64,000 nucleotides of DNA from an uncultured Actinomycetota bacterium (GTDB lineage Bacteria; Actinomycetota; CALGFH01): the NCBI GenBank assembly GCA_963733175.1, contig CAVTCL010000025.1:65720-129719 (forward strand), read 5' to 3'. The position numbers were made by a program, and so were the translations under genes. The notes below the pieces were generated by a model. That model worked only from the letters and a program-made list of their open reading frames with translations, did not search any database and had not been told where the DNA came from. Each line of letters begins with the position of its first letter. Within the stretch, counting starts at the first letter, position 1. Positions 41,386-58,242 of this stretch are shown here, one piece after another.

Positions 41386-41424
41386 CGCGCTGGGGCGGTT
41401 GGTGGCTGGGCTCCCCTCGTCGGC

Positions 41425-42483
41425 TCAGGCGCGCGGGTGCGCCTGCTCGTAGACGCGGCGGAGCCGCTCGTTCGAGACGTGCGTGTAGGTCTGGGTCGTG
41501 GTCAGGGCAACGTGGCCCAACAGCTCCTGCACCGCCCGCAGGTCGGCACCTCCCTCCAGCAGGTGCGTTGCGAAGCTGTGGCGGAGCGTGTGCGGGCTGG
41601 TCCCAGCGGGCGCACCGGCCGCCAGCCGGTACCGCTCGAGCATCCCGCGAACGTCCCGCTGGGTCATCGGCTTCCTCCGCCGATTGAAGAACAGCGCCTC
41701 TCGATCGTCGGCGCCGTCCCGCGTGCTGGCGGTCGTCGAGCGTGCCGGCCGGTCCGCGCCAGGCAGCATGGCGGCGCGGCCGTCCACGAGGTAGTCGAGG
41801 ACGGCGACGCGGGCCGGCTCCCCGAACGGCACGACCCGCTGCTTGGCCCCCTTGCCGAGCACCCGGACGGTGTCGGCCGCCAGGTCGACGTCGCCGAGGC
41901 GGAGGCCGCACAGCTCCCCGACCCGGATGCCGGTCGCGTACAGCAGCTCGAGGATCGCCCGGTCCCGCAGGCCAACCGGGTCGACAGGCTCGGGTCCGGC
42001 GAGCAGCCGGTCGACCTGGCGCGGCTTGAGCACGACGGGGAGGCGCTTGGGCCCACGGGGGACCCCGAGCCCGGCGGCCGGGTCGTCGGGAACGAGCCCC
42101 CGGCGCGCCAGGAACCGGAACCCCGCCCGCAGGGCCGCCGCCTTCCTGGCGATCGACGCCGCGGCAAGCCCCCGCGTCCGCTGCAGCGCCAGAAATCTCC
42201 GCAACAGCAGCGGCTCCACCCGGGCCGGGTCGGTCACCCCAGCCCTCCCGGCGTACTCCAGGAACTGGGTGAAGTCCCGCCGGTAGGCCGCCACGGTATG
42301 CACCGACAGCCCCCGTTCGTCCCGGAGATGGGCGACGAACGCCTCCAACGCATCCCGAGCCGCCGGCCCCAGCCCGTCCGGGTCGTCCACCGGCCCGTCC
42401 GGGTCGAGTGCTCGACCTGACGGGTCGGGTCCGCCACCTGGCGGGTCGGGTTCGCGTCGGTTGTCAGTCATCGCGGTCATCAT
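41425..42483 (-). CDS. xerC: site-specific tyrosine recombinase XerC
   Basis: Likely start at MMTAMTDN (42,483). Motifs [31 protein letters not shown] and [15 protein letters not shown]. Confidence 0.9.
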
Positions 42484-43858
42484 CCCCACCCGGCCCGCTG
42501 TACTCAAGCACCCTCGCGGAGGTGTTGGCGGGTGGGCTGCATCGGGAGGACCCGCGGACCCGAGGTATCGGGCGGTCACCGGTGCCAGGCGGGCTGGCAT
42601 GGCGAGGAGGGCCCCGCGGTTCGGGAGTCGGGGCGGGACCGCCGCCGGCGGCAGGCAGGCCCAGCAGGCTGATGGCCTGGATGCCGGCGGTTGTGCGGCG
42701 GATCAGGCCGGCGAGTTCGAGGTCGAGGAGGGCGGCGTCCAGGGCGGCGGGTGGGAGGGTGGTGGCGGCGGCGAGGCGGCCATGGGTCAGGAGCTGGCCG
42801 TCGACCAGCGCCGTCAGGACCGCCCGGGCGGGAGGATCGAGGCCCGGCCAGGTCTGGACGCCAGGGCCACCACCGTGAGCGGCGGAGCCTGCGCCTGCGA
42901 TGGTGGCGCCGGTCACGGTGGCGCCGAGCTCCTCGAGGATGTCGGTGAGGCTGCGGACCAGGGTGGCACCGTCGCGGATGAGCTGGTTGCAGCCGGCGGC
43001 GCCGGGGTCCCAGGGGGCTCCCGGGAGGACGAGCACGTGGCCCACGCCGCGGCTGCCGGCGGCTCGGGCCGTTGAGAGGCTGCCCGATCCTTCGGCAGCC
43101 TCGACCACGACCACGGCGGCGGACAGCGCGGCGATCAGGCGGTTGCGGGGGAGGAAGTTGGCCGCCCGGGGTTGGGCTCCGGGCGGGTGCTCGCTCGTGA
43201 AGGTGCCACCGCCGGCCAGCACCCGGGTGAACAGGCCGGTGTTGGCGCGGGGATAGGGAACGTCCAGGCCACAGCCGAGCACGACCACGGTGCGTCCACC
43301 GGCATCGACGGCCCCGGCGTGGGCGGCCGCGTCGACGCCGACCGCGCCACCGCTGACCACGCACCAGCCGGCCCTGGCCAGCCCGGCCCCGATGGAGCGG
43401 GCGGCGGCGCGCCGGAGCGGCGAAGCCCGGCGGCCGCCCACCACCGCGACCGACGCCATCGCCTGGGGCGGGGCCGGCCCGGCGACGAACAGCCAGGCGC
43501 AAGGTGGGTCGGGCGGTGTGGCCTCCAGCGGCCAACCCTCGTCGCCCGGGACCATGAGCCGCAGGCCGAGGGCGTCGAGTCGCGCGGCCACGGCGCCCGG
43601 CTCGGGACTGTGCGCACGGAGCAGGCTCGCGGGGTCCCTGCCCTCGGCCAGCCGGGTCGCCACCGCCGCCGGCAGCGGCCCCGGGGTGGCCGCCAGCGAC
43701 AGCAGCACCTCCCGCTCCCCCACCCGAGACGTCCACCACGCCGGGCGACCCTCCATCCCGGTCACGCCCGACCCTCGACGCCGATCATCGCCGCGCCTCC
43801 AGGTCGGAGGCGCACCGTGCGGCGCTGGATGTCTGGTCGGCCGGACCTCCCAGGTCAT
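42464..43858 (-). CDS. dprA: DNA-processing protein DprA (Smf)
   Basis: Rossmann-like core VVSGGAVGVDAAAHAGA...PRNRLIAALS...VVVEAAEGSGSLSTA. Its start overlaps the comM stop (ATGA). Confidence 0.88.
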   Translation of the reverse strand: MTWEVRPTRHPAPHGAPPTWRRGDDRRRGSGVTGMEGRPAWWTSRVGEREVLLSLAATPGPLPAAVATRLAEGRDPASLLRAHSPEPGAVAARLDALGLRLMVPGDEGWPLEATPPDPPCAWLFVAGPAPPQAMASVAVVGGRRASPLRRAAARSIGAGLARAGWCVVSGGAVGVDAAAHAGAVDAGGRTVVVLGCGLDVPYPRANTGLFTRVLAGGGTFTSEHPPGAQPRAANFLPRNRLIAALSAAVVVVEAAEGSGSLSTARAAGSRGVGHVLVLPGAPWDPGAAGCNQLIRDGATLVRSLTDILEELGATVTGATIAGAGSAAHGGGPGVQTWPGLDPPARAVLTALVDGQLLTHGRLAAATTLPPAALDAALLDLELAGLIRRTTAGIQAISLLGLPAAGGGPAPTPEPRGPPRHASPPGTGDRPIPRVRGSSRCSPPANTSARVLEYSGPGGDDDRDD

Positions 43859-44496
43859 AGGAGTTGCGCCTCACGGTCGCCGATGATCGGGAGGTGGCGG
43901 AGGCTGAGGGCCTCCTTGACGTGGTGGTCCTCGACCCGGTCGGAGGTGGCGAGGTCGGCGACCGTCCGGGCGACGCGGAGGGCGCGGTGGAACCCGCGGG
44001 CGCTGAGGCCGAGACGATCGACGGCGGCCATGAGGGTGCGGCGGGCCGCCGGTGTCACCTGGCAGTGAGCGGCGAGGTCGGGGGCGGCCAGGCGGCCGTT
44101 CTCGGCGCCCTGGCGGCGGCGCTGGACGTCGCGGGCGGCCAGTACCCTCGCCCGGACCTGCGCGGTCGGCTCGGCGTCGGCGGCGCCGGTGAGCTCCTCG
44201 GCGGTGAGGCGCTCGGCCTGGACGTACAGGTCGATGCGGTCCAGCAGTGGCCCGGACAGGCGGCTGGCGTAGCGGTGCAGGTCGTACAGGCTGCAGCGGC
44301 AGGTGAAGCGGCTGTCCCCCAGGTGCCCGCACGGGCAGGGGTTGGCCGCCGCGACCAGGGCGAAGCGGGCCGGGAACACCACGCTGGTCATGGCCCGCGC
44401 GACCGTGACCTCGCCCTCCTCGAGCGGTTGGCGCAACGCCTCGCAGGCCGCCCGGGAGAACTCCGGCAGCTCGTCGAGGAACAGCACGCCGCGGTG
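43855..44496 (-). pseudogene. comM: comM/yifB (Mg-chelatase-like AAA+ ATPase), 3' fragment left of the insertion
   Basis: From RGVLFLDELPEF (Walker B) through NPCPCG... to the C-terminus. No ComM-like sequence lies upstream of 44,496. Confidence 0.9.
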
Positions 44497-44520
44497 CCCG
44501 ACGGTGCGGCTAACACCGCC
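44470..44520. other. left attachment junction (attL-like)
   Basis: gccgcgg-TG-cccgacggtgcggcTAACA, with host sequence to the left of the TG at 44,495-44,496. Confidence 0.6.
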
Positions 44521-44640
44521 GGGAACCACGGCGAAGACATGCCCGGAGCGACGTAGGAGCGTCCCCCGGGCTCGGCACGACGAGGATCGGAGCCCTCGCC
44601 ATGCAGAGGCATCGTAACGCGTTCCTGGAGGCCTGGGGAG

Positions 44641-45040
44641 ATGGCGACCTCACCCGTCCCGCTGTGGGCGCAGGAGATGAGCCCCTACCACCGCGGGCCG
44701 ACCGGCGCCGGCGTCCTGGCCCTGGCCGTCGTGGCGGTCCTGCTCGGCCTCGTGCTGAGCGCCAGCGCACCCAGCCAGCCCAGCGAGCAGGACGGGCCGC
44801 GCTGGCAGTCGCCGGCGTGTGCCGAGCTGCAGCGGCTCCAGCGCCACGGCGTGGACAGCGGGCCAAGCTACAGGGCCGTCGCCCGGGCCTGTCGGGAGGC
44901 GAGCAGTGGCCGCTGAGTTCGAGCCCTGGCCGTACGAGCCCTGGCCGGTACTGTCCCGAGAGCCGGCCGGCTTCTGGGAGGACTGGCCTTACGAGCCACC
45001 CCCACCGGCCGAGCCCTGGCCGGCTCAGGAGAGCCGGTAG
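44641..45040 (+). CDS. hypothetical small membrane protein with Trp/Pro/Glu-rich repeat tail (two overlapping ORFs, possibly one frameshifted gene)
   Basis: TM helix GAGVLALAVVAVLLGLVL in ORF 44,641-44,916. ORF 44,819-45,040 ends FEPWPYEPWPVLSREPAGFWEDWPYEPPPPAEPWP, with gagccctggccg repeated in the DNA. Confidence 0.4.
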
Positions 45041-45141
45041 CGCGGGGCTGGAGGGCCTCCAGGGGGAGGGCCGCCCCTTCGGGGCGGGCGGCTCCGGCGG
45101 CAGCCTCCGCCGCCCGGATCGTCCGGATTGCACACCGGACA

Positions 45142-45183
45142 TGCCACGCCAATGCCGCGCTACTGCCACGCCAATGCCACGCC
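45142..45183. repeat. iteron-like direct repeats tgccacgcc(aatgcc)
   Basis: The 15-nt tgccacgccaatgcc occurs at 45,142 and 45,164 (22-nt spacing), and a third tgccacgcc at 45,175. Confidence 0.7.
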
Positions 45184-45243
45184 CCTCCTGGCGCGGGCAG
45201 CGGTTCTCGCCGCAGCAGCGTTCCTGCAGGTAGATCCCCCTCC

Positions 45244-45286
45244 GGGGGCCGAGTCACCCGCAAAAACCGCGGGTGACTCGGCCCCC
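45244..45286. promoter_or_regulatory. 18-bp perfect inverted repeat (candidate oriT/ori or operator hairpin)
   Basis: gggggccgagtcacccgc-aaaaacc-gcgggtgactcggccccc, flanked by small ccccc/ggggg hairpins, about 120 nt upstream of the Replic_Relax-like gene. Confidence 0.6.
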
Positions 45287-45408
45287 TACGGGGGAGTGGA
45301 TGGGCGCACCTTCGGTGCGCGCTCGCTTCGCTCGCAGGATTTCAAGCATCCATCCGGGGTGCCGTGGCCCGGGGCCACGATCGGTTGTGGCGGGGGCGGT
45401 GGTCGGCG

Positions 45409-46143
45409 ATGACGGCCTCGGAGAACCCCACCAGGCGGCGACGGTCGGACGCCGGGATGGTGCATCTGACGGTCCGGGATGGTCGTGCCCTGGGTTGGAT
45501 CGGGGAGCAGTACGGGGTGCGGATCGACGTGGCCGCGGTGGTGCTGGCGCGGGTGTCGGAGCGGGAGGAGCTGAGCCGCCGGACGGTCCGGGTGCAGCTG
45601 GACCGGTGGGAGCGGGCCGGGCTGATCCTGCGGCCGCGGCTGTACGGCCGGTCGTGGGTGGTGCCGACTGCGGCCGGGTTGGCGTTCGCCGGGCTGCCGT
45701 ATCTGCCGTGGCGGCCCGCCTACGGCCGTCTCGCCCACGTGCATGCGGTCAGTGTGGTGCGGCTGGCGTTGGAGGCGGCCGCGCCTGGGGTGGTGTGGAT
45801 CAGCGAGCGGGCGCTGGAGCGTGAGCGTCGCACCCAGGGTGGGAGCTGGCATCGGGCCGATGGGGCGGTCGAGGTTCCCGCGCCGACTGACCGGCCGGGG
45901 CTGCAGCGGGCGCTGCACGCCATCGAGGTCGAGCTGACGCCCAAGTCGCGGCCGCATCTGGCCGAGGTGTTCGCCACCCTGCCTGGCAACACCGTGGCCG
46001 TCACCTACTTCGTCCCGGCAGAAGACCTGGCGGCGCTACGGGTAGCGCTGGCCGAGGTCCTGGCCGACCGGCGCACGCCGCTGCAGGTGCAGGCGGTGGA
46101 GCTGCCCGGCGTGCCGGGGATCGTCTATGAGGGGGAGCGGTGA
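45409..46143 (+). CDS. replication-relaxation (Replic_Relax, PD-(D/E)xK-like) family protein
   Basis: N-terminal wHTH-like region, then LAHVHAVSVVRLALE...VVWISERAL...HRADGAVEV...HAIEVELTPKS, which matches the family architecture. The start could be 45,364, 45,409 or 45,457. Confidence 0.6.
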   Translation: MTASENPTRRRRSDAGMVHLTVRDGRALGWIGEQYGVRIDVAAVVLARVSEREELSRRTVRVQLDRWERAGLILRPRLYGRSWVVPTAAGLAFAGLPYLPWRPAYGRLAHVHAVSVVRLALEAAAPGVVWISERALERERRTQGGSWHRADGAVEVPAPTDRPGLQRALHAIEVELTPKSRPHLAEVFATLPGNTVAVTYFVPAEDLAALRVALAEVLADRRTPLQVQAVELPGVPGIVYEGER

Positions 46144-48176
46144 GGCCCGAGCTGCGCGACCCGGGTGGCGCCCCCACGCCCCCGCCGCGGGTCGTCACCC
46201 TGCTGGGGCTCTACAGCCTGCTCGGGCTCCTCTGCCTACCCGCCCTGCCGGTGGCCATGGCCACCGCGGCGCTGCTGCGCACCTGGACGCGGGTGCGGCC
46301 TGTGCTGGTCGCGGCGGTGGCCGCGGTCGCTCTGGCTGGGGAGCTGGCTGCCTGGCGGTCGCCGCTGTTCGGCGGCAACCTGCTCAGCTTCCACCTCTCG
46401 GGGTGGGCGATGTTCTCCCTCACCCACCCGCACGTCGACGTGGCGTTCTGGCGGATGGTGTTCGAGGCCCCGGTCGGCCTCCCCCTGGGGGTGCTGCTGG
46501 GGGCGGTGCACATGCTCCATAGCGACCACGCCACCCGCGGGCTGCCCTGGCATCCACGGACCGTCCAGCGCACGCCGCCAGCAACGCCCGCGCCGGCCGC
46601 CAGGTGGCCCGGACCCTGGAGCGGATGCCGCCCTTCGTCGGCGACGCGCCAGCGCTCGGGGCGGTCTATGACGGGGAGCTGCCGGCCTGGCAGCACGGCG
46701 CCTATGCGGTGCTGCCGAGGGAGCTGCGCGGCCGGGCGATCACTCTGGCCGGCGCCCCCGGCGTGGGTAAGACGGTGCTGCAGCGCCGGTTGGTCTCTGC
46801 TGACGCGGCCCGTGGCCGGCGGGTGGTATTCATCGACGCCAAGGCCACCGAGCCCACCCTGGCCGCCGAGCTGATCGCCGCCTACACCGCCGGAGCCGGG
46901 TTCGTGCCGCGGGTCAAGCTCTGGCCGGCCGAGCCGCTGTCGGGCTGGCAGGGCGACCCGATGGAGCTGGCCAACCGCCTGATGGCCGTCCAGGACTGGT
47001 CCGAGCCCTGGTATGAGCGGGTCGCCTCCCGAGCGATCCGGCTGGCCTGTGGCGCCGACATCGGCCCGCCCCGCTCGGCCGAGGAGCTGCTGGCAAGGCT
47101 CACCGCCCGGGGCTGGAGCAGCTGTACGCCGGCACCGACCGGGCCGAGCTGGTCCGCCAGCTCACCGCGGCCAAGGGGTTCGAGGGGGCGGCGCTGCGCT
47201 ATGGCGACTTCTTCGACGCCCTCGCCGGCCGCTTCGACGGCAGCTGGAGCTACGACCAGGCCGACCTGGCCGTCCTCAGCCTGCCGGTGCTGGCCGCCCG
47301 CGAGGACGCCAGCGCCGCCTTCCGGCTGCTGCTGGAGGACCTCGGCCACTACGGCGTGGCCCGCAAGGACCGCGACGACCAGGGCATGACCGTCTACCTG
47401 GAGGAGTTCTCCGCCGTGTCCGACGGCGCCCGAGCGGCGATCGACTGGCCGAGCGGCTCCGAGACGCCGGAGTCGGAGTGGTGTTCGTCGTCCAGTCCTA
47501 CGAAGGGTTGGGTGACGAGCACCAGGCGGCCCGGCTGCTGGGCAGCTCGGCCGCGCTCATCGTGCATCGCATGCCCCAGCCCGAGCGCCTGCTGGCCGCC
47601 GCCGGGACCATCTGGACCCCGGAACAGACCTGGCAGCTCGACCAGTGGGGACCAGACGGGCACGCATCGCTGCGGATGGCCCAGCGGCCCCTGGTCGACC
47701 CGGACGCCGTGCGCCGCGCCGGGGTCGGCGAAGCATGGACCATCGCCGCCGGCCGCAGCCTCCACCTCCAAGTCGCCGAGACCCCGTACGCACCGCAGCC
47801 GGCCGAGTTGCCCACTCCCCACCAGGATGGCCTGGCCGTCGTCGAGGAGCGGCCGCCGTGGGTCGTTGACCTGCCCGAGCAGGAGCCGGCAACGGCGACG
47901 GTCGTTGCTGGAGAACTGCCGTCGCCCGGCCAGTCCTGCCGCCACCGTCGCCGGAGCTGCCAAGGTTGCGGTGCAGCTCGCCACGCCGTCCGCGAGGGTG
48001 ACGAGCTGGCCCTGCGGAGAGTGTTGAAGCGGGCTGCTCGGGTCGCGCCCACCTGGGACGCCGAGGCCGAGCTGGCCGAGCTGACCGCGGACCGGCGCCG
48101 GCGCCGCCGCAACCAGCCGCCGGCCTGGCGGGGCTGGCTGACCCGCATCGCTCACGCACGGAGGACCCAGCCATGA
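46140..48176 (+). CDS. type IV coupling protein-like / TraD-TraG-like P-loop ATPase, frame broken about 3 times
   Basis: N-terminal TM helices, Walker A LAGAPGVGKT, Walker B-like MTVYLEEFSAV, and VGVVFVVQSYEGLGD. Frame changes near 46,600, 47,110 and 47,440. GTGA overlap with the upstream gene. Confidence 0.6.
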
Positions 48177-48399
48177 CCGACGACGAGATCATGCGCCAGC
48201 TCAGCCAGGCGGTCGCGACGACGACGTGCTGGCCGCCGAGGAGCTGGTCACGGCCGGGCAGCAGGAGCATCCGGAGTGGGACTGGTCGTTCCTGGCCACG
48301 GTGCTGTGGATCCAACGCGGCCAGGTGCAGGAGGAGCCGCCCCGGCAACCGGGCTGGCGGCGGTGGCTGCGCTGGCTGGGCGACGGTGGCCACCGGTGA
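48173..48399 (+). CDS. hypothetical small protein (frameshift near 48,215)
   Basis: ATGA overlap with the ATPase gene. MTDDEIMRQLSQAVA / DDVLAAEELVTAGQQEHPEWDWSFLATVLWIQRG... Confidence 0.4.
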
Positions 48400-48698
48400 G
48401 GACCGGCCTCGCCTTCGGCGCCGCGTCCGGGAACCCTGCACCCGGATGCGGACCGGCCGGTTGCCTGCCAGGTGGGCTGCCACCTGGCCGCCGTCCGCGT
48501 CAAGGGCGCTCCGCGTCCCTTCGGGATGGCCTGCGGCCCCCCTTGACCCGGCCGTCGTCCAGCCGGCCCGGAGACAGCGGTCGCCCGGGGCGGGCGAGGA
48601 CCTGAGCCCACCAGGCAGGCAGCCCGAGGAGGTGACCAGCCCAGGCCTGCCGCAGTCACCGAAGGGGCGCAAGCGCCCCACGAGCCCAGGAGGGACGC

Positions 48699-49115
48699 AT
48701 GGCCACCGACAACACCGTCACCCTGATCGGCAACCTCACCGACGACCCCGAGCTCCGCTTCACCGCCAACGGCGCCGCCGTGGCCAACTTCCGCCTGGCC
48801 GTCACCCCCCGCATCCGCCAGGGCGACCAGTGGACCGACGGGGAGACCAGCTTCTTCCGCATCAACTGCTGGCGCCAGCTCGCGGAGAACGTCACCGAGA
48901 CGCTCAGCAAAGGCGCCCGGGCCATCGTCATCGGCCGGCTGCGCATGCGCGCCTGGGAGACCGACGAGGGCGAGCGCCGCAGCGTTGTCGAGGTCGAGGC
49001 CGATGAGGTCGCCCCCTCGCTGAAGTTCGCCACCGCCACCGTCCAGCGGACCAGCGCAAAGGCGGCCGCCGGCGCCAGCAAGGGCGGCCAGTTCACCGAC
49101 GAGCCGCCGTTCTGA
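48699..49115 (+). CDS. ssb: single-stranded DNA-binding protein
   Basis: 138 aa with an OB fold ([29 protein letters not shown]...[15 protein letters not shown]) and the acidic tail FTDEPPF. AGGAGGGA ribosome-binding site. Confidence 0.93.
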
Positions 49116-49126
49116 CCTGCAGCAGT

Positions 49127-49159
49127 GAGGCCGGGACAGCCGCTAACCGTCCCGGCCTC
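49127..49159 (+). terminator. 11-bp perfect hairpin downstream of ssb (terminator/attenuator candidate)
   Basis: gaggccgggac-(11 nt)-gtcccggcctc. No strong U-tract follows. Confidence 0.35.
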
Positions 49160-49182
49160 GCGCATCTGAGATTGGAGCCCCG

Positions 49183-49386
49183 ATGCAGACTCGATCCTAC
49201 CCGACCCGGCCGACAGCCCCGACCCCGGCCGTCCCGGCCGCGGAGCCGGCCCTGCACCTGCTGGGCGGCATCTGGATCGCCTCCTGCCCCACTTGCGGCT
49301 ACCAGCTCACCACCGCCCAGACCCAGCAGCGTTGCGAGCAGCGCGCCCGCCGCCGAGATTGCCCGGTCTGCCGAGAGGACGCCTAA
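49183..49386 (+). CDS. small zinc-ribbon-like protein (CPTC...CPVC)
   Basis: 67-aa ORF with paired CxxC motifs. Its last 54 nt are duplicated at 51,835-51,888. Confidence 0.5.
   Translation: MQTRSYPTRPTAPTPAVPAAEPALHLLGGIWIASCPTCGYQLTTAQTQQRCEQRARRRDCPVCREDA
49333..49386 (+). repeat. direct repeat copy A (3' end of the zinc-ribbon gene)
   Basis: 46 of 54 nt identical to 51,835-51,888, with the last 18 nt (tgccgagaggacgcctaa) identical. Confidence 0.85.
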
Positions 49387-49569
49387 AGGCATCCACGATC
49401 CCAACCTGGCACAGGTAGATACATGGCCCGGTCCCCAGCTCACGGTACCAAGACGGTGTACTTGCAATGCCCGCGCGGCCACGTTCACCCCCCTACCAGT
49501 TCGGCGGCTGTGCCTGGGATGGCTGAACGGGAGTGCCAGCCAGCGTTGAAGTGGCGAAGCCACAGGCTC

Positions 49570-49634
49570 TTGCCGCATGACCTGGTGGTCGTTGACCACC
49601 AGGACGCGGATGGTTCGATGCTGGTGGGCGTCAC
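49570..49634 (-). pseudogene. 5' stub of a NarL/LuxR-type response regulator gene
   Basis: A GTG overlaps the kinase stop, then (after one frame slip) TIRVLVVNDHQVMRQ. Similarity stops after about 20 codons. Confidence 0.55.
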
Positions 49635-51199
49635 CGCTGGGCTGGGATCTGGACGCGCAGGACGGTGCCGGCGCCGGGGGCGCTGGTGAGCTCGAGCCGG
49701 CCCCCGAGGTCGGCGACGCGGCCTCGCATCGATCGCAGGCCGAAGTGCTCGCGACCAACGGCGGCCGGGTCGAAGCCACGGCCGTCGTCGGCCACCTCGA
49801 CCGTAACGGTGCCGTCCGCCGTCGCGATGTGGACCATGGCGGTGCTCGCCCGAGCGTGCTTGACCACGTTGGCCAGGGCCTCCTGGCCCAGGCGGTACAG
49901 CTGCTCTTCGACCTCGGCGTCGAGGGGCAGGCGCCCGTCGGGTCCGTCGACCTCGATCACCAGCCCCTCCCGGGCGCTCAGGGCCGCCGCCTGCTTGGCC
50001 AGCGCGGCGACCAGCCCCTCCTCGGCGAGCGCGCCCGGCTGGAGCTCCAGGATGAGCGCGCGCATCTCGGCCAGCGCCCCCCGGGTCAACTGGCCGATCT
50101 CGCGCAGCTCCTCCCCCACGGGCCCGTCGGTGTCGAACTCCTCGAGCTCCAGCTCGAGCTGGGCGCTGCGGACATGCAGCGTCGCCGAGAACAACGACTG
50201 GGAGACCGAGTCGTGCAGATCGCGGGCCAGGCGCTGTCGCTCCAGGGCGGCACGCTCACCCTCGCGACGCTGCGACTGGGCCAGCTCCAGGGCGGCCCGC
50301 CGGCGCTCACTGACGATCGCCGCCAAACAGCACGTCGTCAGCGCCGCCAGCACGATGTAGAGCTGGAGATTGAGCGCGCTGTCGGTCGCCGAGTGCACCA
50401 CGAAGGGTCCCAGCTGGCGCGAGGTGGCCGCCACCGCGATCACCGCCGCGACCGCGACCGCCAGGGTCGCGCCCGGGGGGCCGAGGCGCAACGCGGCCCA
50501 GATGAAGGCCGGGAACACGATGTAGGTAAGCGGCTGGTCGGCCGAGAACGCCAACAGGCTCAGCCCGATCACCGCGGCCAGCATCAGGGCGGCCTCCACC
50601 ACCCGGCGGCCCGGCCACGCCGACGCGCTGGTGTGCGCCCAGGCGAGGGCGAGGGGGACCACGACCAGCCCGCCCGCCAGGCCGCCCAGCCACCAGCTCC
50701 GCCAGAACACCCCCATCACGGATGTCTCGATGAACCCTTCTGCCAGCCCGACGAGCATGGCCCCGGTCGCGGTGACCGCCGCATTAACGGCCACGGCGAC
50801 GAGCACCGCGCCGACCTGGTCGAGCCGGTCCATGGCCGCCCGCCGGCCGACCAGCCGCTGGAGGATGAGCACGGCGGCGAGCGTCATGACAACCTCGACC
50901 GCCGTTGAGACGAGCACGACCCACAGCGGCAGCACGAACACCCTCGACAGCAGGTTCCCGAGCAGGACCCCGGGCCACCAGCGCAAGCCACCCAGGTACA
51001 GCACCGCGATGCCCACGCCGGTGGCCAGCCAGAAGGCCGCAGCCTGGCCCGTCAGCCACAGCACCTCGGCGCCCTTGGCGGCGGCCCAGTAGCCGCCGGC
51101 GATCAGCAGCACCCCGGCCGCATACCGCAGCGACCGTCCGGAGAGCAGTGAGCCCCGCCAGGTCGGCTGGGCGGCGGGGACCGGTGCGTCGGTGTTCAT
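49631..51199 (-). CDS. sensor histidine kinase, MASE1 + HisKA_3 + HATPase_c
   Basis: GGGAGGGG then ATG at 51,199. Polytopic MASE1-like N-terminal half, H-box LARDLHDSVSQSLF, and ATPase motifs EALANVVKHA and DDGRGF. Confidence 0.85.
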   Translation of the reverse strand: MNTDAPVPAAQPTWRGSLLSGRSLRYAAGVLLIAGGYWAAAKGAEVLWLTGQAAAFWLATGVGIAVLYLGGLRWWPGVLLGNLLSRVFVLPLWVVLVSTAVEVVMTLAAVLILQRLVGRRAAMDRLDQVGAVLVAVAVNAAVTATGAMLVGLAEGFIETSVMGVFWRSWWLGGLAGGLVVVPLALAWAHTSASAWPGRRVVEAALMLAAVIGLSLLAFSADQPLTYIVFPAFIWAALRLGPPGATLAVAVAAVIAVAATSRQLGPFVVHSATDSALNLQLYIVLAALTTCCLAAIVSERRRAALELAQSQRREGERAALERQRLARDLHDSVSQSLFSATLHVRSAQLELELEEFDTDGPVGEELREIGQLTRGALAEMRALILELQPGALAEEGLVAALAKQAAALSAREGLVIEVDGPDGRLPLDAEVEEQLYRLGQEALANVVKHARASTAMVHIATADGTVTVEVADDGRGFDPAAVGREHFGLRSMRGRVADLGGRLELTSAPGAGTVLRVQIPAQR

Positions 51200-51289
51200 C
51201 CGGCCCCTCCCAGGTCTGCGCATCGCCCTTTGAAAGAACGGTACCGCCGCGCGCAACCCGAGTTGACCAACGCGCGGGGGGCGCCGGCC

Positions 51290-51682
51290 TCAGCCGCCAG
51301 GTGGCCAGGGATCGTGGCGGTAGGCAGCGCGGATCATCTCGAGGAGGTCGTCGACGTCGCGGCCATGCTTTTCCAGGAAGGCGTGCGCGCCTTCCGCCAC
51401 AGCCTGGGGCCCCAGCTCGCCCATGCGGCTGATGGCCACGACCGGGCGGCCGCGGCCTCGCAACTCCTGGAGGACCTGCATCCCATCCGACGCCTGGGGC
51501 AGCAGGAGATCCAGGACGACCACGTCAGGATCCAACTCCAGGTCGAGGCGTCCGGCGCTTCCGGCGGACCCGGCCTCGCCGACCACCGTCAGGTCCGACG
51601 CCCGCTCGATCAGACCGCGGAGCGCCCGCCGGACCCGGGCGTCGTCGTCGACGACAAACACCCTGATTGGCGGTTGTTGCAT
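51290..51682 (-). CDS. stand-alone receiver-domain response regulator (no output domain)
   Basis: Start at MQQPPIRVFVVDDD, then DVVVLDLLLP. About 130 aa with no HTH. Confidence 0.7.
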   Translation of the reverse strand: MQQPPIRVFVVDDDARVRRALRGLIERASDLTVVGEAGSAGSAGRLDLELDPDVVVLDLLLPQASDGMQVLQELRGRGRPVVAISRMGELGPQAVAEGAHAFLEKHGRDVDDLLEMIRAAYRHDPWPPGG

Positions 51683-51834
51683 GGTCCTCGCCAGTGGCAG
51701 ATGGGTCGAGTCGGCTGTAGAGGGACCTAGGTCATCTGTCGCGCCGAGCTTGCGTCGCTCGACCGATGATCCTGCGTCTCTCACCTGTGATGATGCGGTT
51801 CGGCCGCATGTGAGGTGGCGGCCATGGACGCCAG

Positions 51835-51888
51835 TGCGAGCAGCGTGCCAGCAGCCGGCGTTGTCCGGTGTGCCGAGAGGACGCCTAA
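51835..51888 (+). repeat. direct repeat copy B (orphan copy of the zinc-ribbon gene's 3' end)
   Basis: Encodes CEQRASSRRCPVCREDA*, against CEQRARRRDCPVCREDA* in copy A. An in-frame stop lies a few codons upstream. Confidence 0.85.
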
Positions 51889-51920
51889 GTAAGCGACTTG
51901 CGCTCTCCTGCCCTCCTACC

Positions 51921-52060
51921 GCCGCCGGTCTCGCAGCCGGTCTCGCAGGCCGCCTCCCCGGTCGTCGCGCCGGTCGTCGCGTCGGTCCCCGCGGTCGTCG
52001 CGCCGATCTTGCAGCCGGTCTCGCAGGCCGCCTCCCCGGTCCCCGCGGTCGTCACCCCGG
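51921..52060. repeat. composite short tandem/direct repeats (12-nt ccggtctcgcag x2; 31-nt unit repeated 78 nt apart)
   Basis: gcagccggtctcgcaggccgcctccccggtc occurs at 51,933-51,963 and 52,011-52,041, with gtcgtcgcg-type repeats between. Confidence 0.8.
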
Positions 52061-52108
52061 TCCCCGATCACACCAGGTCGTTCAAAGCGCCCGCTTCCAA
52101 GCGGCATC

Positions 52109-52573
52109 TCAGGCTCCTTCCGACTTCGAACGCTCGTCCTCCTCGATCAACGAGATGATCGCCTGCATCGGGATGCGGCCACTCGCTGCAAGCCGGCCGC
52201 CGGCGTGGCGGACCGCCGAGGCGAAGGGGGCAGCCCATGCGTTCTCCCAAGCCAACACAGCTGCGACGCTGCCGGGCTCCATCGCCTCGGCAAGCGCTGC
52301 GATGTCGTCTGCTGCCAACAGCTCTGTGACCTCTGTTTCGAACGCGCGGAGCTCACCGACCTCACTGTCGTCACGATCCGGCACTTCGAACGCTTCAAAG
52401 GAGCCATCGGCGTCCTTCTGAATGAAGAGCAGATCCAGTATGCGGATGAGCCCTCGCTCGACCAGATCGTGCAGCGCGGCAGCCATCTCCCCGTGGAACT
52501 GGCTCTTTCCCTGGGGGAACTCGACCACGAGGTAGTCGACCGGTCCGAACTCATCAACGTCGCCCTCGCTCAC
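52109..52573 (-). CDS. conserved hypothetical protein (resembles actinobacterial DUF6325-type family)
   Basis: GAGGAGGGA then GTG at 52,573. GPVDYLVVEFPQGK...IRILDLLFIQKDADGSFEAFEV...VLAWENAWAAPFASAVRHAGG. The family name is from memory and was not verified. Confidence 0.55.
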   Translation of the reverse strand: MSEGDVDEFGPVDYLVVEFPQGKSQFHGEMAAALHDLVERGLIRILDLLFIQKDADGSFEAFEVPDRDDSEVGELRAFETEVTELLAADDIAALAEAMEPGSVAAVLAWENAWAAPFASAVRHAGGRLAASGRIPMQAIISLIEEDERSKSEGA

Positions 52574-52962
52574 GTGTCCCTCCTCTCGGACTCACTCTCG
52601 AACTGTGCCGCTAGCTGTATCGCTGCCATGCTTGGCAGGCATTACCCCAACGGGATAACCATGCGCCGTAGCGACCCCCCCAACGGTGCTTCCACAGAGC
52701 GCTGTGCACGAGTGTCGTGTTGCTGAGCGGGCAACCAGCTGCTGCGAACCACGCTGGTCCGTGCCACCGACCACGCCCGCCGGTGAGGACTAAGCGGCTG
52801 TGGCGTTGTAGAGATCGGTTCTGGCTTGGGTGGTGGGTGAGGCCGATCGCCGGTGACCGTCGTGTCGTTGCCGGGCCGGAGGGCGGCCGCAGGCCGCCCG
52901 CAGGGCCGGCCTTGAGGGTGTGGAGAAACTCCTCACGGCTGCCGCCCCAGGGAGGAGGGGGT

Positions 52963-52988
52963 CCGGGGGAGGAGGCCTCCTCCCCCGG
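52963..52988. repeat. 26-nt perfect palindrome
   Basis: ccgggggaggaggcctcctcccccgg is self-complementary. It lies in an about 700-bp stretch with no convincing ORF. Confidence 0.85.
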
Positions 52989-53295
52989 CTTGACCAGCCA
53001 TCCGGGTTGCCCGGGCATGGCGGTGTCGGTGGGGCGCGATGCCGCCCCGTCAAGCGGCAATGTCCGGCATCCCGCCACAGCTCAGCCGTCACGCCGCACC
53101 CCATTGGCGCTTGACGGGGTGCCGTCAGGTCAGGCGCCCGCCTCCCGGAACCTAAGAACTTCCTGAGAAGTTCGTCCCATTTGGTGCCCCCTGGTTCCCC
53201 CTCGTGCCTGCTGGTGTCCGTGCGTGCCCCTGAGTCCCAGCGGGGCTGTGGATACGTAACGGTTGAAGGCCGCCTAACCGTGTTTTCCTGGCTGG

Positions 53296-53440
53296 GTGAC
53301 TGCGCTCGACCCCGGAGACATCGACCGCCTGGCGGTCGAGTCCCGCCGCCGCCAAGGCCTCCCCGACTACGTGGAGGACCCGGCCACCATCGCCCGGGTG
53401 GTCCGGCTCATCCTGGCCGGCCGCCCGCCGTCAGGTCCGC
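53296..53440 (+). CDS. hypothetical small protein convergent with, and running into, the recombinase 3' end (3' end unresolved)
   Basis: GTG start. The first about 45 codons (LDPGDIDRLAVESRRRQGLPDYVEDPATIARVVRLILAG) have near-uniform G/C at third positions. Beyond about 53,430 the frame is just antisense to the recombinase. Confidence 0.35.
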
Positions 53441-54828
53441 CAGATGACCTCGATACGGGAGGGGTCGAAGACGTTGCGGCCCTGGAGGCAGGGGTGCAGG
53501 ACCACCCTTTCGACCACCGCCGCCAGGACCGCGCGGCGCCAGCTCAGCCCCCCAGTGGCCCAGGCCTCGCGCAGCGCCCGCTCCCCCACCGGCAGGGCCG
53601 CCAGTGTCCGCGTAGCTGCCTGGCCCGCCAGGCGCCGCCGGGTCGTGTCCATGCGCGCCTCGACCCGCGCCCTGGCCCGGGCGAAGTCGGCCCGGCGCAG
53701 GGTGCCGTCGGCGAAGGCGTCGACCAGCTCGTCCAGGCGGTCCTGGTCGACCTGCAGGGCGTGCAGCAGTTCCCGCTCGGCCTGGTCCTCCCCGGTCGCC
53801 GCCGCCAGCGCCGCCGTGAGGGCTGGCCCGCTGAGCTGGCGGACCACCCACTCAGAGACGAGCTGCTCGACCGGCTCAGCGAGGCGGCCAGTCTTGCCGC
53901 AGCCGCCGAAGTTCGGGCCCGACGCGCACACGTACCGGCGGCGCCGGTCCTGGCGGGGCCGGGCGACCAGCTTGCGGCCGCAGCGGCCGCAGACCAGGAA
54001 GCCGCTGAGCAGGTAGCGGCGGGCGTCGATGCCGTTGAACTTCTGGCGGCCGGGGTCGGTGAGGATGGCCCGCAGCCGCTCGTGGGTATTGCGGTCGATG
54101 ATGCCCGGCCACACCGCCTCGGCAGTCACCACGCCGTGGTGCTCGCGCAGCCCGGCGATGCGGGCCGACAGCAGCATCCGCCGGAGGGTCTGGGTGCGCC
54201 ACTGGCCCCCGGTCGGTGTGGCGGCCTGGCGGGTGTTCCAGTCGGCGGCGATGCTTCGCAGCGACTCGCCGGCCAGGACCCGAGCAACGGCCTCGCGGAC
54301 CAGCTCGGCCTCGGCGTCGACCAGGTGCAGGCGGTCGGCGGTGTAGCCGAACGGGCGGGTGCCGCCGCCGGCGACGCGGCCCTGCTCGGCGGCCTGGAGG
54401 GCGGCGCGCTGGATGCGCCGGCGCCGGTCGTCGTTCTCCTTCTTGGCCACCGCGCCGAGGATGCGGGCGTGGAAGCGGCCGTCGTTGGTGCCCAGGTCGA
54501 CGTCGCCGGCCACGCTGGCCAGCCGGGTCACGCCGGCCCGGTCGCAGACCTCGAAGAAGCGTTCCAGCTCAGCAGGGCGGCGATGCAGCCGGTCCAGCGC
54601 CCACACGATCACCGCATCCACCAGGCCGGCCTCGATGTCGGCGAGGAGCCGCTGGTAGGCGGGGCGGGGCCGGCCGGAGTCGGCGGACACGTCGTTGTCG
54701 CAGTAGACCTGGGCGACGGTCCAGCCGCGGCGCTCGGCCAGCTCGCGGCAGTCCCGCTCCTGACGCTCGACACCGGCCCGCAGCCCGGAGGGGTCCGAGC
54801 TGATCCTCACGTAGACGGCCGCGGGCAT
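53431..54828 (-). CDS. large serine recombinase (integrase)
   Basis: 465 aa with N-terminal resolvase catalytic domain (AVYVRISSD...GVERQ), recombinase domain and a zinc-ribbon region (CGRCGRKL...YVCASGPNFGGCG) followed by a coiled-coil-like tail. Confidence 0.9.
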   Translation of the reverse strand: MPAAVYVRISSDPSGLRAGVERQERDCRELAERRGWTVAQVYCDNDVSADSGRPRPAYQRLLADIEAGLVDAVIVWALDRLHRRPAELERFFEVCDRAGVTRLASVAGDVDLGTNDGRFHARILGAVAKKENDDRRRRIQRAALQAAEQGRVAGGGTRPFGYTADRLHLVDAEAELVREAVARVLAGESLRSIAADWNTRQAATPTGGQWRTQTLRRMLLSARIAGLREHHGVVTAEAVWPGIIDRNTHERLRAILTDPGRQKFNGIDARRYLLSGFLVCGRCGRKLVARPRQDRRRRYVCASGPNFGGCGKTGRLAEPVEQLVSEWVVRQLSGPALTAALAAATGEDQAERELLHALQVDQDRLDELVDAFADGTLRRADFARARARVEARMDTTRRRLAGQAATRTLAALPVGERALREAWATGGLSWRRAVLAAVVERVVLHPCLQGRNVFDPSRIEVIWRT

Positions 54829-54835
54829 GGTGGAC

Positions 54836-54886
54836 CCGGATGTTACAGTAGATCCCTGCCATGGGCGAGGGAGACCTCGCCGGGTC
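54836..54886. other. right attachment junction (attR-like)
   Basis: TGTTAcagtagatccctgcca-TG-ggcgagggagacc, with host comM sequence to the right of the TG at 54,862-54,863. Confidence 0.6.
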
Positions 54887-55745
54887 GGGGGACCTGGCCG
54901 CCGCCGACGAGGCCGGGGACCGAGATGGCGTGGTGGGGGGCGCGGAACGGCCGGATGCGGATGAGGCCGGCGTCCGGGCCGAGGAGCCCGGCGGCCGAGA
55001 ACACCTGGGTGACCTCGAGCGCCTCGTCCTGCTCGAGCGGCGGGAGCAGGCCGGGGAGGCGCCTGGCCAGCATCGTCTTGCCGGCGCCGGGCGGGCCGGT
55101 GAGGAGCAGGTTGTGGGCGCCGGCGGCGGCGATCTCCAGGGCCCGGCGGGCCTGGTGCTGGCCCCGGATGTCGGCGAGGTCCTCGACCGCCGGCACCTGG
55201 GGTTCGGGCGGCGGCCCGGGACGGCCCAGATCGGCCCGGCCGACCAGCCACTCGCCGACCTGCTCCAGCGAGGCGGCTCCGGCGACCGGCAGGTCGGGGA
55301 CGAGGGCGGCCTCGACCAGGTTGGCCTGGGGTACGACCAGGAGCCGGGCGCTCGACCGGCGGGCCGCCAGGGCGGCCGGGAGCACGCCCTTGACCGCGCG
55401 GACGTCGCCGCCGAGGCCGAGCTCGCCGATGGCCCACAGACCCTCGAGGGCCGTCGGCGGCACCCACCCGGCCGCGGCCAGCAGCCCGATCGCGATCGGC
55501 AGGTCGAACCCGGAGCCCTGCTTGGGCAGGTCGGCCGGGGGCAGGGAGACGGTGATGCGCCGGTCCGGCCACTCGTAGCCGGTGTTGCCGAACGCGGCCC
55601 GGAGCCGGTCGCGCGCCTCCAGCACGGCGGTGCCGCCGAGCCCGACCACGGTCACGGCGGGCAGGCCGCGGCCGATGTCGACCTCGACCCCGACCGGGTA
55701 TGCGGTGAGGCCGACCAGCGCGGCCGTGGCCAGCCGGGCCAGCAT
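54843..55745 (-). pseudogene. comM: comM/yifB, 5' fragment right of the insertion
   Basis: MLARLATAALVGLTAYPVGVEVD...LLLTGPPGAGKTMLARRL...RPFRAPHHAIS...GEVSLAH, then 5 foreign codons (GRDLL) and a stop at 54,843. Confidence 0.9.
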
Positions 55746-55747
55746 CC

Positions 55748-56120
55748 TCACAGCACTCCCTTGAGGTGCTCGACCCGCGGCTGGCCCTGGCGGGGCCAGA
55801 CGACGGTCACGACGTCGAAGCGGACCCGCGAGGGCCGATGCGGGGTGGCTGCGCAGGTAGGCCCCGGCGAGCCGGCGGAGCTGGGCCTGCTTGGCGGCGT
55901 CGACGGCGGCCGCCGGGGTGCCGTAGCCGACGCCTCGCCTGGTCTTGACCTCGCAGAACACCAGCAGGCCGGGCGCCTCGGCGACCACGTCGATCTCACC
56001 CGACCGGCAGCGCCAGTTGCGGGCCACGATGCGGAGCCCGGCGGCGGTCAGCCGGGCGCAGGCGAGCGCTTCACCGCGCCGCCCCAGTTCGCCGCGATCG
56101 GCGGGATGCTTGGCAGGCAT
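55748..56120 (-). CDS. yraN: YraN family (UPF0102) endonuclease-like protein, frameshift near 55,850
   Basis: GRRGEALACARLTAAGLRIVARNWRCRSGEIDVVA...LVFCEVKTRRG. The C-terminus RFDVVTVVW...EHLKGVL is in ORF 55,748-55,999. Confidence 0.82.
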
Positions 56121-56265
56121 GGGCCGCACCCTAGCCGCCGCCAGCCCCGAATTGGACGACGCTCCCAAGAATGTGGAAAACCCCGCGGGAGCGCGGCGCG
56201 CGTCCGGGCGGCGACCCGCCGGCGGGGGCCTTGAATCCCGGGGCGGGAGCGGCCACCCTAGGCCT

Positions 56266-56700
56266 GTGGAGAACACGGGAGCACTGTCGGCCCGCCGGGA
56301 TATGTTCCTCGACGAGCGCGGGGCTGGGTTGCGCGTCACCTGGCACCCGGAGCGGGACCTGGTGGTGCTGAGCGTCTGGCACGACGAGAGCTGCGTCGGG
56401 ACCTTCCGGATGCCGGTCCAGGACGTGCCCCGACTCAGCGGCCTGCTGGCGGCCGCCCTCGGCGACTGGGTCGACCAGTCCGGGGGTGCCGTCCCGCTCA
56501 GCTTGGGCGGGCCCGGCGGCCGGAACCGGGGCGGGCCCACGGGCGGGGCCGGGCGGCCCAGGGGCCGGGGCCGGTCCGGTGGCTGGGGCCGGTGGGGTCA
56601 GCCTTTCGGTGCAGCAGCGGCTCAGGCTCAGCCGGCCGGTGCTCAGATTGCGGGGACTTCAGCACCGGCGGCGTCGGCCTACCTGAGCGCGACCCCGCGC
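56266..56700 (+). CDS. hypothetical protein (3' end unresolved; Gly/Arg-rich tail)
   Basis: MFLDERGAGLRVTWHPERDLVVLSVWHDESCVGTFRMPVQDVPRLSGLLAAAL looks protein-like. The frame then runs on as antisense to the LCP gene, so the stop is unclear. Confidence 0.4.
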
Positions 56701-56751
56701 CTACCGCATCGCCCGCGCGACCGGCCCCGCTCGACCCCGCTCCCCAGCTCG

Positions 56752-58242
56752 TCAGCAGGGGCGGGGGTCGTAGGGGCGGAGGTCGGGAACGGCCTTCTTC
56801 GCGCTGGGCTTCTTGGTGGTCGGGCCCGACCCACCGTCTCCATCCGAGGCGCCGCTGTCCCCGGCCGTTGTGCCTGGCCCGCTGGGGGCCGAACCTGGCG
56901 AGGCCAGGGGGCGGATGCCGGTGAAGCCGGGGCCGAGGACGAGGGTGAGGTTGGAGGCGCTGAGGGTGGGGTCTTCGACGAGGCGGGCGCCGCCGATGAG
57001 GGTGCCGGCGAGGGTCTGGGCGTCGGCGAGGCGGCCGGGGGGGTAGGCGATCTGGGACCTGGGGAGGTCGGCGGTGGGGGCGTTGCCGACGGTGGCGATG
57101 CGGTAGCCGGAGCCTCGGAGCTTGGTGGCGGTGGTGGCGGCCAGGCCGGTGGTGCCGAGGGCGTTGAGGATGGTGACCTGGGTGTTGGCGGGGGCGGTGG
57201 CGCCGGGGGTGGCGCCGGGGGCCGGGGCGGGGGCGCGGCCGAGGAAGCGGTCGACCACGGCGGTGGCGTCGGGCTGCTTGAGCAGGAGGACGTCGCCGAG
57301 GGGATGGTCGGTGGGGACGGTCACCGGCAGGGTGTAGGTGGCCAGCTTGGAGGGGCTGAAGGAGCGGAAGGCGGTACCGGTGCGGATGACGTCGCTCACC
57401 CGCAGGCCGCTGTCCTTGGTGACCTCGTGGACCAGGGAGCCGACGAAGGCGTTGGCCCGCACCGGGTTGGTCAGGCCCTTGTCGAGGGCGGCCTTGACCA
57501 GCGCCTGGAGGAACGCCTGCTGGCGGCGGATGCGGCCCAGGTCGGCCCACGGGTCGCTGTGCCACACCCCGTCGAGCTGGTAGGCGAAGTAGCGGCTGCG
57601 GGCCAGGGCCAGCGCCCGGCCGCCGTTGAGGTGGCGGCAGCCGGCCTCGCGGATGTCGAGGCCGGACTTGAGGTCCCGCGACGGGTAGGGGAAGCGGACG
57701 TCGATGCCGCCGAGGGCGTCGACGATGGCCCGGAAGCCGTCGAAGTCGATCAGCACGTAGTGGTGGATGGGCACGCCGAAGTTCTGCTCGATGGTCTTGA
57801 CCAGCTGGCCCGGGCCCCCGGTGAAGGCGGCGTTGATGCGGTTCTCGCCGCCGCCGGCGATGGGGACGACCAGGTCCCGGGGGATGGAGAGCATCGAGAC
57901 GCGCTTGCGGGCCGGCTCCACCCTGACCACCAGGGTGGTGTCGTTGCGCTGGCCGCCGACGTTGCCGTAGCGGCTCCCGTCGGCGTCGTCCAGGCCCTCG
58001 CGGGAGTCGGAGCCGACCACCAGCAGGTTGAACGGGCGCCCGCTGCTCGACTTGTGCAGCCCGGGGACATCGACCGAGCTGATCTGGCCGAAGCGGTAGT
58101 GCACGTAGCCGTACCCGGCCGTGGTCGCCACGACCAGGAACACCAGGAGCAGGCTGCACCCCACCATGAGCCGCCTGCGCATCCGACTTGCCCGGGCGCG
58201 GGCTGCCCGAGAGGTCCGTACCATAGGCGAGCACGCTACCAC
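56752..58242 (-). CDS. LCP (LytR-CpsA-Psr) family cell-envelope phosphotransferase with LytR_C domain
   Basis: N-terminal TM helix, then NLLVVGSDSR...RNDTTLVVRV...SIPRDL...INAAF...GGRALALARSR. The C-terminus has VTILNALGTTGLA. Confidence 0.88.
   Translation of the reverse strand: MVACSPMVRTSRAARARASRMRRRLMVGCSLLLVFLVVATTAGYGYVHYRFGQISSVDVPGLHKSSSGRPFNLLVVGSDSREGLDDADGSRYGNVGGQRNDTTLVVRVEPARKRVSMLSIPRDLVVPIAGGGENRINAAFTGGPGQLVKTIEQNFGVPIHHYVLIDFDGFRAIVDALGGIDVRFPYPSRDLKSGLDIREAGCRHLNGGRALALARSRYFAYQLDGVWHSDPWADLGRIRRQQAFLQALVKAALDKGLTNPVRANAFVGSLVHEVTKDSGLRVSDVIRTGTAFRSFSPSKLATYTLPVTVPTDHPLGDVLLLKQPDATAVVDRFLGRAPAPAPGATPGATAPANTQVTILNALGTTGLAATTATKLRGSGYRIATVGNAPTADLPRSQIAYPPGRLADAQTLAGTLIGGARLVEDPTLSASNLTLVLGPGFTGIRPLASPGSAPSGPGTTAGDSGASDGDGGSGPTTKKPSAKKAVPDLRPYDPRPC

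Follow-up and report, generated by a model that had tools for sequence, protein, structure and literature searches.

Homology-facilitated illegitimate recombination, which also takes place during conjugation (PMC3240628), has been proposed to account for the strings of orphaned 3' regions and displaced genes found in type VI secretion system (T6SS) and Rhs loci (PMC5361080). In Rhs C-terminal displacement, as in the effector-immunity arrays of the Vibrio cholerae T6SS, new DNA is added behind a conserved upstream anchor, the old 3' part is pushed downstream as an orphan that starts with a piece of the conserved sequence, and the joints are not site-specific (PMC5361080; PMC3240628). A locus that appears to share these traits is described here, in a stretch of 64,000 nt (the whole stretch is called hereafter the window) from an uncultured Actinomycetota bacterium (assembly GCA_963733175.1, contig CAVTCL010000025.1, positions 65,720 to 129,719). 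An element integrated in the comM gene carries, within this window, a zinc-ribbon gene whose last 54 nt recur 2.5 kb downstream, on the other side of a two-component gene block. Unlike the Rhs and T6SS cases, no toxin locus is concerned but a small integrative element, at its cargo slot; the orphan is 17 codons long and probably functionless, a single displacement is seen and not an array, and the parents were not recovered.

Two other kinds of described systems resemble this locus in part. Elements that use tyrosine integrases to target the 3' end of tRNA or other genes are flanked by a direct repeat of that 3' end, with an identical stretch at one of its ends, as is the case here. In contrast to them, the block studied here has no integrase, its insert is ordinary chromosomal DNA with arbitrary ends, the two copies of the repeat differ at 15% of positions, and the other members of the family do not show the pattern. 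Integrative elements, mobilisable or conjugative, that enter comM by means of a large serine recombinase share with the present one the split comM gene, the Resolvase, Recombinase and Zn_ribbon_recom domains encoded at one end, and an empty site in relatives. They differ from it by their backbone, which here matches no curated family beyond its SSB protein and its recombinase.

On balance, we favour the explanation that the downstream copy of the repeat (copy 2) descends from a second, diverged zinc-ribbon allele, whose tail was left orphaned when two related comM-targeting elements with different cargo were joined. The features on which the argument turns are the following.

49183-49386, plus strand: zinc-ribbon gene (CxxC...CxxC, 67 aa), intact, with which the conserved left backbone ends
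49333-49386, plus strand: repeat copy 1, last 17 codons and stop of the intact zinc-ribbon gene
49387-49628, no strand: spacer of 242 nt, containing a perfect hairpin at ~49580-49604
49631-51202, minus strand: MASE1-HisKA_3-HATPase histidine kinase (Pfam), captured cargo, 79-84% nt identity to the loci of G001, G005, G010 and G019
51290-51682, minus strand: hybrid receiver gene, NarL-type regulator start fused to a receiver-only body
51683-51834, minus strand: native upstream region of the captured operon; similarity to congeners ends at 51834
51835-51888, plus strand: repeat copy 2, orphan 3' fragment of a putative second zinc-ribbon allele
51885-52736, minus strand: second piece of captured DNA, with a repeat-rich small open reading frame (ORF, 51885-52055) and a DUF6325 gene (52109-52573, Pfam DUF6325)

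The initial annotation of the window had counted, by eye, 46 matches out of 54 between the two copies, including an identical terminal 18-mer. Ungapped alignment of nt 49333-49386 with nt 51835-51888 gave exactly these figures, the perfectly matching last 18 nt being TGCCGAGAGGACGCCTAA. The copies align in register and their edges are sharp, with a start at a TGC codon and an end at the TAA stop. Copy 1 encodes the peptide CEQRARRRDCPVCREDA and copy 2 the peptide CEQRASSRRCPVCREDA, each followed by the stop. Copy 2 is a fragment only, with an in-frame TGA at 51811-51813, 24 nt upstream. All eight mismatches fall within the first 36 nt; four of them are at third, three at first and one at second codon positions, with no significant departure from random.

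Throughout the 64-kb window, pairs of 54-nt stretches lying at most 5 kb apart reached 46 matches in three cases. The other two were local repeats with spacings of 78 and 105 nt, the first of which is the repeat tract 51922/52000. Five triplet-shuffled controls yielded no pair at this level, and the 54-nt repeat exceeds chance. A search for the 18-mer or the 54-mer around other cargo had been suggested by the initial annotation. Over the 3.45 Mb of the genome, a metagenome bin that is 77% complete with 4.9% contamination, neither the 18-mer (up to two mismatches) nor the 54-mer (up to 12 mismatches) occurred again, so that there are two copies only.

Given a 77%-complete metagenome bin, in which one 2-kb gene of the element shows six 1-nt gaps relative to two other assemblies, an artefact has to be considered. 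The assembler could have mimicked a repeat out of another intact zinc-ribbon gene, as the initial annotation had pointed out, or through a chimeric join. However, both copies and both joints of copy 2 recur in L046 and L047, two independent metagenome assemblies from two other samples, and the repeat structure is therefore no assembly error. Moreover, what precedes copy 2 is not zinc-ribbon sequence but the DNA that natively lies upstream of the operon. We regard the artefact as extremely improbable.

The 2,448 nt between the copies had been described as containing a minus-strand MASE1 kinase, a receiver-only regulator and a regulator stub, and no recombinase. The MASE1/HisKA_3 kinase and the receiver-only protein are encoded there; they account for all the ORFs of the block, and none of these encodes a recombinase. 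The stub could not be confirmed: it amounts to 15 residues (TIRVLVVNDHQVMRQ) without an in-frame start codon, has no Pfam match, and lacks a counterpart in four congeners at the native locus. The DNA encoding it forms a perfect hairpin of 10-11 bp (fold z = -3.3), located ~27 nt past the kinase stop. This hairpin speaks neither for nor against a gene remnant, because LVVDDHQ in high-GC codons is nearly palindromic by itself.

Alignment of the block with genomes of the same genus revealed that nt 49629-51834 are 79-84% identical to a locus encoding, in four congeners (G001, G005, G010 and G019), a NarL-type regulator, a receiver-only protein and a MASE1 kinase. The congener operon adjoins ordinary genes, on contigs devoid of element backbone, and is not accompanied by repeats. 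Its similarity to the window stops at the kinase stop codon on the left and exactly at nt 51834 on the right. The block is a captured chromosomal two-component operon. No native copy of it was found elsewhere in the 77%-complete bin. An orthologue of the gene that neighbours the operon in G010 is present at C25:281500-285300, rearranged and split, with duplicated helix-turn-helix parts and no operon beside it. A look-up of the kinase protein returned no record, and that of the regulator of L047 returned only its own contig.

Within the operon, nt 51573-51654 align to the native locus twice. The variant found in L047 is longer by 725 nt and has kept the NarL-type regulator and the receiver as separate genes (L047:8107-9313). 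In the window and in L046 the two genes are fused, the receiver of the window being composed of the regulator start (MQQPPIRVFVVDD) followed by the receiver-only body. The crossover is located within GTCGTCGACGAC, at the VVDD codons. A deletion of 725 nt between the two receiver genes has taken out the DNA-binding output domain of the NarL-type regulator, and the variant of the window is left with a kinase and a receiver, downstream of the upstream region of the regulator. As judged from the intact genes of L047, which comes from another sample, this deletion is polymorphic in the population.

On its left side, the operon is separated from the zinc-ribbon gene by the 242-nt spacer. Comparison of nt 49387-49628 by tblastx with the genome and with all the loci collected gave noise only, and local alignments to the 400 nt downstream of the zinc-ribbon genes of relatives scored at the level of shuffled sequences. 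The spacer matches nothing, and the left end of the captured operon can only be placed somewhere in 49387-49628.

The right joint could be determined to the nucleotide. At 51834/51835 it is blunt, with 0 nt common to both sides: the native locus continues with GAGGGCGAG toward the divergent regulator gene, and the window continues with TGCGAGCAG, which is the start of copy 2. The sequence word across this joint is GACGCCAGTGCGAGCAG. At its other end, copy 2 meets the DUF6325 segment at 51885-51888, where 4 nt (CTAA, including the stop of copy 2) are common to both sides; the word across this second joint is GACGCCTAAGTAAGCGAC.

The DUF6325 segment extends from nt 51885 to a far end near 52736, and its nt 51885-52733 are 93-97% identical to a locus that does not belong to an element in L048, L049 and L050, from the same sample series. 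The gene order at this source-type locus is ion channel, DUF6325, small ORF, phosphatase and PPK2, and the DUF6325 protein is 100% identical in the three. The segment is a second chromosomal capture. The remainder of this 12-kb locus is absent from the 77%-complete bin, and the source may be a missing part of the same genome or a neighbouring organism. The initial annotation had expected related elements to have, immediately behind their zinc-ribbon gene, the DNA that starts after nt 51888 in the window; none was found, and this DNA is the captured DUF6325 segment. Copy 2 is a backbone island of ~50 nt lying exactly between two captured chromosomal pieces.

The origin of copy 2 was examined against the family of the zinc-ribbon gene. 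Eighty related loci were fetched, and the counts of alleles and of second tails were made on the 79 other members of the family. The two copies share 79.5% identity over the 39 nt that extend from CEQR to CPVC, and 10 of the 79 relatives, from unrelated metagenomes, are nearer to copy 2 than copy 1 is. The copy 2 peptide, CEQRASSRRCPVCREDA, is one residue off the common tail of the family, CEQRASRRRCPVCREDA; it is the copy 1 tail (ARRRD) that is the unusual one. These comparisons argue that copy 2 derives from a different zinc-ribbon allele, not from copy 1. The simplest route to a direct repeat would be a duplication of the gene tail in place, upon insertion of the operon, after which the non-functional copy would have drifted by mutation, and the spread of mismatches over codon positions, not significantly different from random, agrees with it. 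Such a history is nevertheless hard to reconcile with a copy 2 that is nearer to the alleles of 10 relatives and that fits the common family tail better. In addition, a drift of 15% in the tail is ill-matched with a DUF6325 segment still 93-97% identical to its source, and the copy 2 peptides are identical in all three sampled variants. A duplication in place is thus very improbable.

Inspection of the related loci also revealed where cargo begins. The zinc-ribbon protein has 191 homologues in metagenomes. Coverage of the element by the 80 related loci was 62-74 per 100-nt bin over the SSB and zinc-ribbon genes, and 0 from nt 49401 on. The stop codon of the zinc-ribbon gene marks, family-wide, the border between the conserved backbone and a variable cargo. 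A cargo slot that starts at this stop explains why the repeat ends exactly there. On the right, the slot is bordered by a conserved non-coding piece of ~200 nt (nt 52951-53146), which shows 72-80% similarity to L024, L105, L129, L043 and contig C22 of the same bin, is also present in G011, and sits 0.4 to 3.6 kb behind the zinc-ribbon genes of other elements. None of the 79 related loci had a second zinc-ribbon tail (at least 1.5 kb of downstream sequence was available in 29 of them, and at least 2.5 kb in 17).

In the favoured explanation, the joints, the slot border, the derivation of the two cargo pieces from chromosomes and the difference between the alleles are observed; the existence of two parents, called X and Y, and the succession of events are reconstructed, as follows. 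Parent X would have had a zinc-ribbon gene with the captured DUF6325 segment placed directly at its stop codon. Parent Y would have brought DNA composed of the backbone, its own zinc-ribbon gene, a spacer of ~0.2 kb and the captured two-component operon. Y would have paired with X along the conserved backbone, and its non-homologous end would have been joined illegitimately 54 nt inside the zinc-ribbon gene of X. The outcome would be an intact Y gene, followed by the Y cargo and then, 2.5 kb downstream, by the X cargo, which would have kept in front of it the 17 terminal codons of the X gene. The route may have been displacement by homology-facilitated illegitimate recombination, or an equivalent deletion in a transient X-Y tandem. 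A later deletion between the two receiver genes would have stripped the variant of the window of its DNA-binding regulator.

The anchor that this scheme uses is present, as the backbone, including the SSB and zinc-ribbon genes, is conserved in the 80 relatives as far as the stop codon. Three other contigs of the same bin carry complete or partial elements of the same kind (C34:16964-20726, C8:47925-50434 and C22:223864-224034), which provides an opportunity for recombination between elements. They likely reside together in one cell (the contamination of the bin is 4.9%), and an occupied comM would presumably leave an incoming relative without integration site. Recombination between two related elements at the zinc-ribbon gene was the second possibility raised by the initial annotation, and it fits the different allele, the island between two captures and the coincidence of the stop codon with the border of backbone and cargo.

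Several observations weigh against the favoured explanation. Neither parent was found: no contig had a full zinc-ribbon gene directly before the DUF6325 segment, nor an intact zinc-ribbon gene with the spacer and without copy 2. Exact-protein look-ups with the zinc-ribbon and DUF6325 proteins returned only the same element, one variant of it and the chromosomal DUF6325 locus; GTDB genome contigs yielded only three loci that were already known; a scan of viral contigs for the joint between copy 2 and the DUF6325 segment gave no match, and a plasmid search matched SSB genes only. The 242-nt spacer matches nothing. The blunt joint lacks the few nucleotides of microhomology usually reported for homology-facilitated illegitimate recombination. 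Finally, the identity of the terminal 18 nt is a mild coincidence for independent alleles, the probability that eight mismatches placed at random over 54 nt spare the last 18 being ~0.03, and the TAA stop is used by just five of the 79 relatives.

The terminal identity and the rare TAA stop are the reason why a homology-dependent variant was kept as a rival. A circle of 2.5 kb, derived from a related element and composed of a zinc-ribbon tail, the spacer and the operon, closed at 51834/51835, would have integrated by a single Campbell-type crossover within the short homology to the resident zinc-ribbon gene, most likely at the identical 18-mer. Such an integration accounts for a direct repeat bracketing the block, and for a perfect stretch confined to the terminal 18-mer, with all eight mismatches in the first 36 nt; the different allele and the blunt joint fit it as well as they fit the favoured explanation. 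It calls, however, for two rare events, an illegitimate circularisation and a recombination on 18 nt of identity within 54 nt at 85%, versus one for the junction of two elements. Moreover, neither a circle nor another insertion of the unit was observed, the genome has the 54-mer and the 18-mer at this locus only, and none of the 79 relatives has a second tail. The circle is a possible but rather unlikely source of the repeat.

To return to the junction of two related elements, three observations soften the coincidence of the 18 nt. Among the 29 closest proteins, five have a CREDA tail; in the element of G014, the zinc-ribbon gene terminates with exactly the same 18-mer; and the chromosomal side of the CTAA joint may have supplied the TAA of copy 2.

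The initial annotation had put first another reading of the repeat, the footprint of a site-specific insertion whose DNA already includes a copy of the target. In this scheme, a cassette would target the zinc-ribbon 3' end, using a recombinase supplied in trans, and replace the tail that it displaces. A direct repeat of a gene 3' end with 18 identical nt at its outer end agrees with it, as does a cargo border that coincides family-wide with the zinc-ribbon stop. The rest of the evidence gives it no support. The block contains no recombinase and is an ordinary chromosomal operon, whose blunt right end at 51834 lies inside the intergenic region upstream of it. The insert is not a discrete unit with its ends at the repeats, its left end being unplaceable within 49387-49628. 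The copies differ at eight positions in the first 36 nt, and the pattern does not recur among the 79 relatives, including the 29 with at least 1.5 kb and the 17 with at least 2.5 kb of downstream sequence.

The recombinase of the element itself also speaks against such a cassette. The host element and the remaining features of its backbone are listed below.

43855-44496, minus strand: 3' part of the split comM/yifB gene (Mg-chelatase-like ATPase), Pfam Mg_chelatase positions 96-206 and Mg_chelatase_C, contiguous with the 5' part in same-genus genomes
~44497-54863: integrated element of ~10.4 kb, attL near 44497 and attR near 54863, from empty-site and junction alignments
45364-46143, plus strand: backbone gene with no family assigned, 228 aa as called in L046, homologues in related elements on contigs C34 and C8 of the bin
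46140-48176, plus strand: membrane-anchored P-loop ATPase, weak AAA_22/AAA_16 and TraD matches at the P-loop only
48699-49115, plus strand: SSB gene of the backbone, Pfam SSB 5.4e-33, phrog_44
52823-52950, no strand: dispersed repeat of ~115 nt, many copies in related genomes
52951-53146, no strand: conserved non-coding piece of ~200 nt, common to elements of the family, right border of the cargo slot
53431-54828, minus strand: large serine recombinase, Pfam Resolvase, Recombinase and Zn_ribbon_recom, phrog_95 integrase 8.6e-97
54843-56000 (high end approximate), minus strand: split comM/yifB gene, 5' part, with a ChlI domain and positions 1-106 of the Mg_chelatase profile

The comM gene is a frequent target of mobile elements. 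Here its 5' part ends at 54843 and its 3' part (profile 96-206) begins near 44530. Six genomes of the same genus (G002, G003, G004, G008, G009 and G010) have an empty site, in which ~44496 joins ~54864 directly; an example of uninterrupted comM is given by G003:C770, nt 5700-5836 then 5838-5932. The recombinase found at one end of the element has Resolvase, Recombinase and zinc-ribbon domains. Large serine recombinases leave just a shared core of ~2 bp, and at the comM junctions only a short core is common with the empty site; judged by eye, with no scored comparison, these junctions are unlike the 54-mer. A cassette inserted site-specifically by a trans-acting recombinase is accordingly very improbable. 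In a broader form of the idea, all elements of the family would genuinely receive their cargo at the zinc-ribbon 3' end, with modules inserted by a trans-acting recombinase or by a replication-linked mechanism, each bringing a replacement tail. This is a long shot; if true, the orphan tail would be one step of an ordered, cassette-like accretion.

The backbone of the element encodes, in this order, the 228-aa protein, the membrane-anchored P-loop ATPase, a 75-aa protein, the SSB protein and the zinc-ribbon protein. Scans with Pfam, PHROG and NCBIfam gave matches to curated families limited to SSB and the recombinase among the backbone proteins, and the product of 45364-46143 matched none of the three. 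No relaxase, Rep protein or secretion system was recognised among the proteins of the element, and no tRNA gene within nt 40000-58000. The P-loop ATPase is possibly a coupling protein, as suggested by its weak TraD match. It is a single frame of 680 aa in L046 and L047, and its version in the window is broken by the six 1-nt gaps mentioned above, at 46573, 47105, 47444, 47924, 47971 and 47983 relative to these two assemblies, most of them within short C or G runs. The gaps are probably assembly errors of the bin, the alternative being real decay.

The element on contig C34 is syntenic with that of the window from the first backbone gene through the zinc-ribbon gene. On contig C22, a longer zinc-ribbon homologue is followed by 3.6 kb of different cargo and then by the conserved ~200-nt piece. 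In the window, this piece contains a perfect palindrome of 26 nt (52963-52988) and a 25-nt inverted repeat (I25). A regulatory region, a transfer origin and a small RNA are candidate roles for it.

To the right of ~52783-52794, L047 (nt 10432-10959) and L052 (nt 1-523) diverge from the window and from each other, at what is another breakpoint of the cargo slot. The dispersed repeat of ~115 nt that follows (nt 52823-52950) has one more copy in the same genome, at C9:76178-76253, where the chromosomal ssb gene is ~1.2 kb away; in G004 it has some ten matches or more. It has no tRNA or Rfam match, and a structured RNA or a miniature mobile element are candidate identities for it. The sole Rfam match within nt 44000-56000 is to naRNA4, at 44493-44572, across the left junction of the element; with 30.4 bits versus a gathering score of 59.5 (E = 0.033), it is probably due to chance.

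Under the favoured explanation, the orphan tail is a fossil, left when two small mobile elements recombined once, and as such of modest importance. The phenomenon is of a kind already known, that of mosaic mobile elements and of 3' fragments orphaned by displacement, observed here in an uncharacterised family of small actinobacterial elements. The slot behind the SSB and zinc-ribbon module would be filled with ordinary chromosomal DNA, joined at arbitrary points and not via a dedicated insertion system. The locus would also offer a clean, datable series of steps in one natural population, from the capture of the DUF6325 segment, through the addition of the operon, to the loss of the regulator by recombination between receiver genes. 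The element family, common in soil metagenomes, is a more interesting object than the repeat itself. The joining of related elements, most likely the source of the repeat, is an ordinary route by which such elements accumulate cargo, and not a new insertion system.

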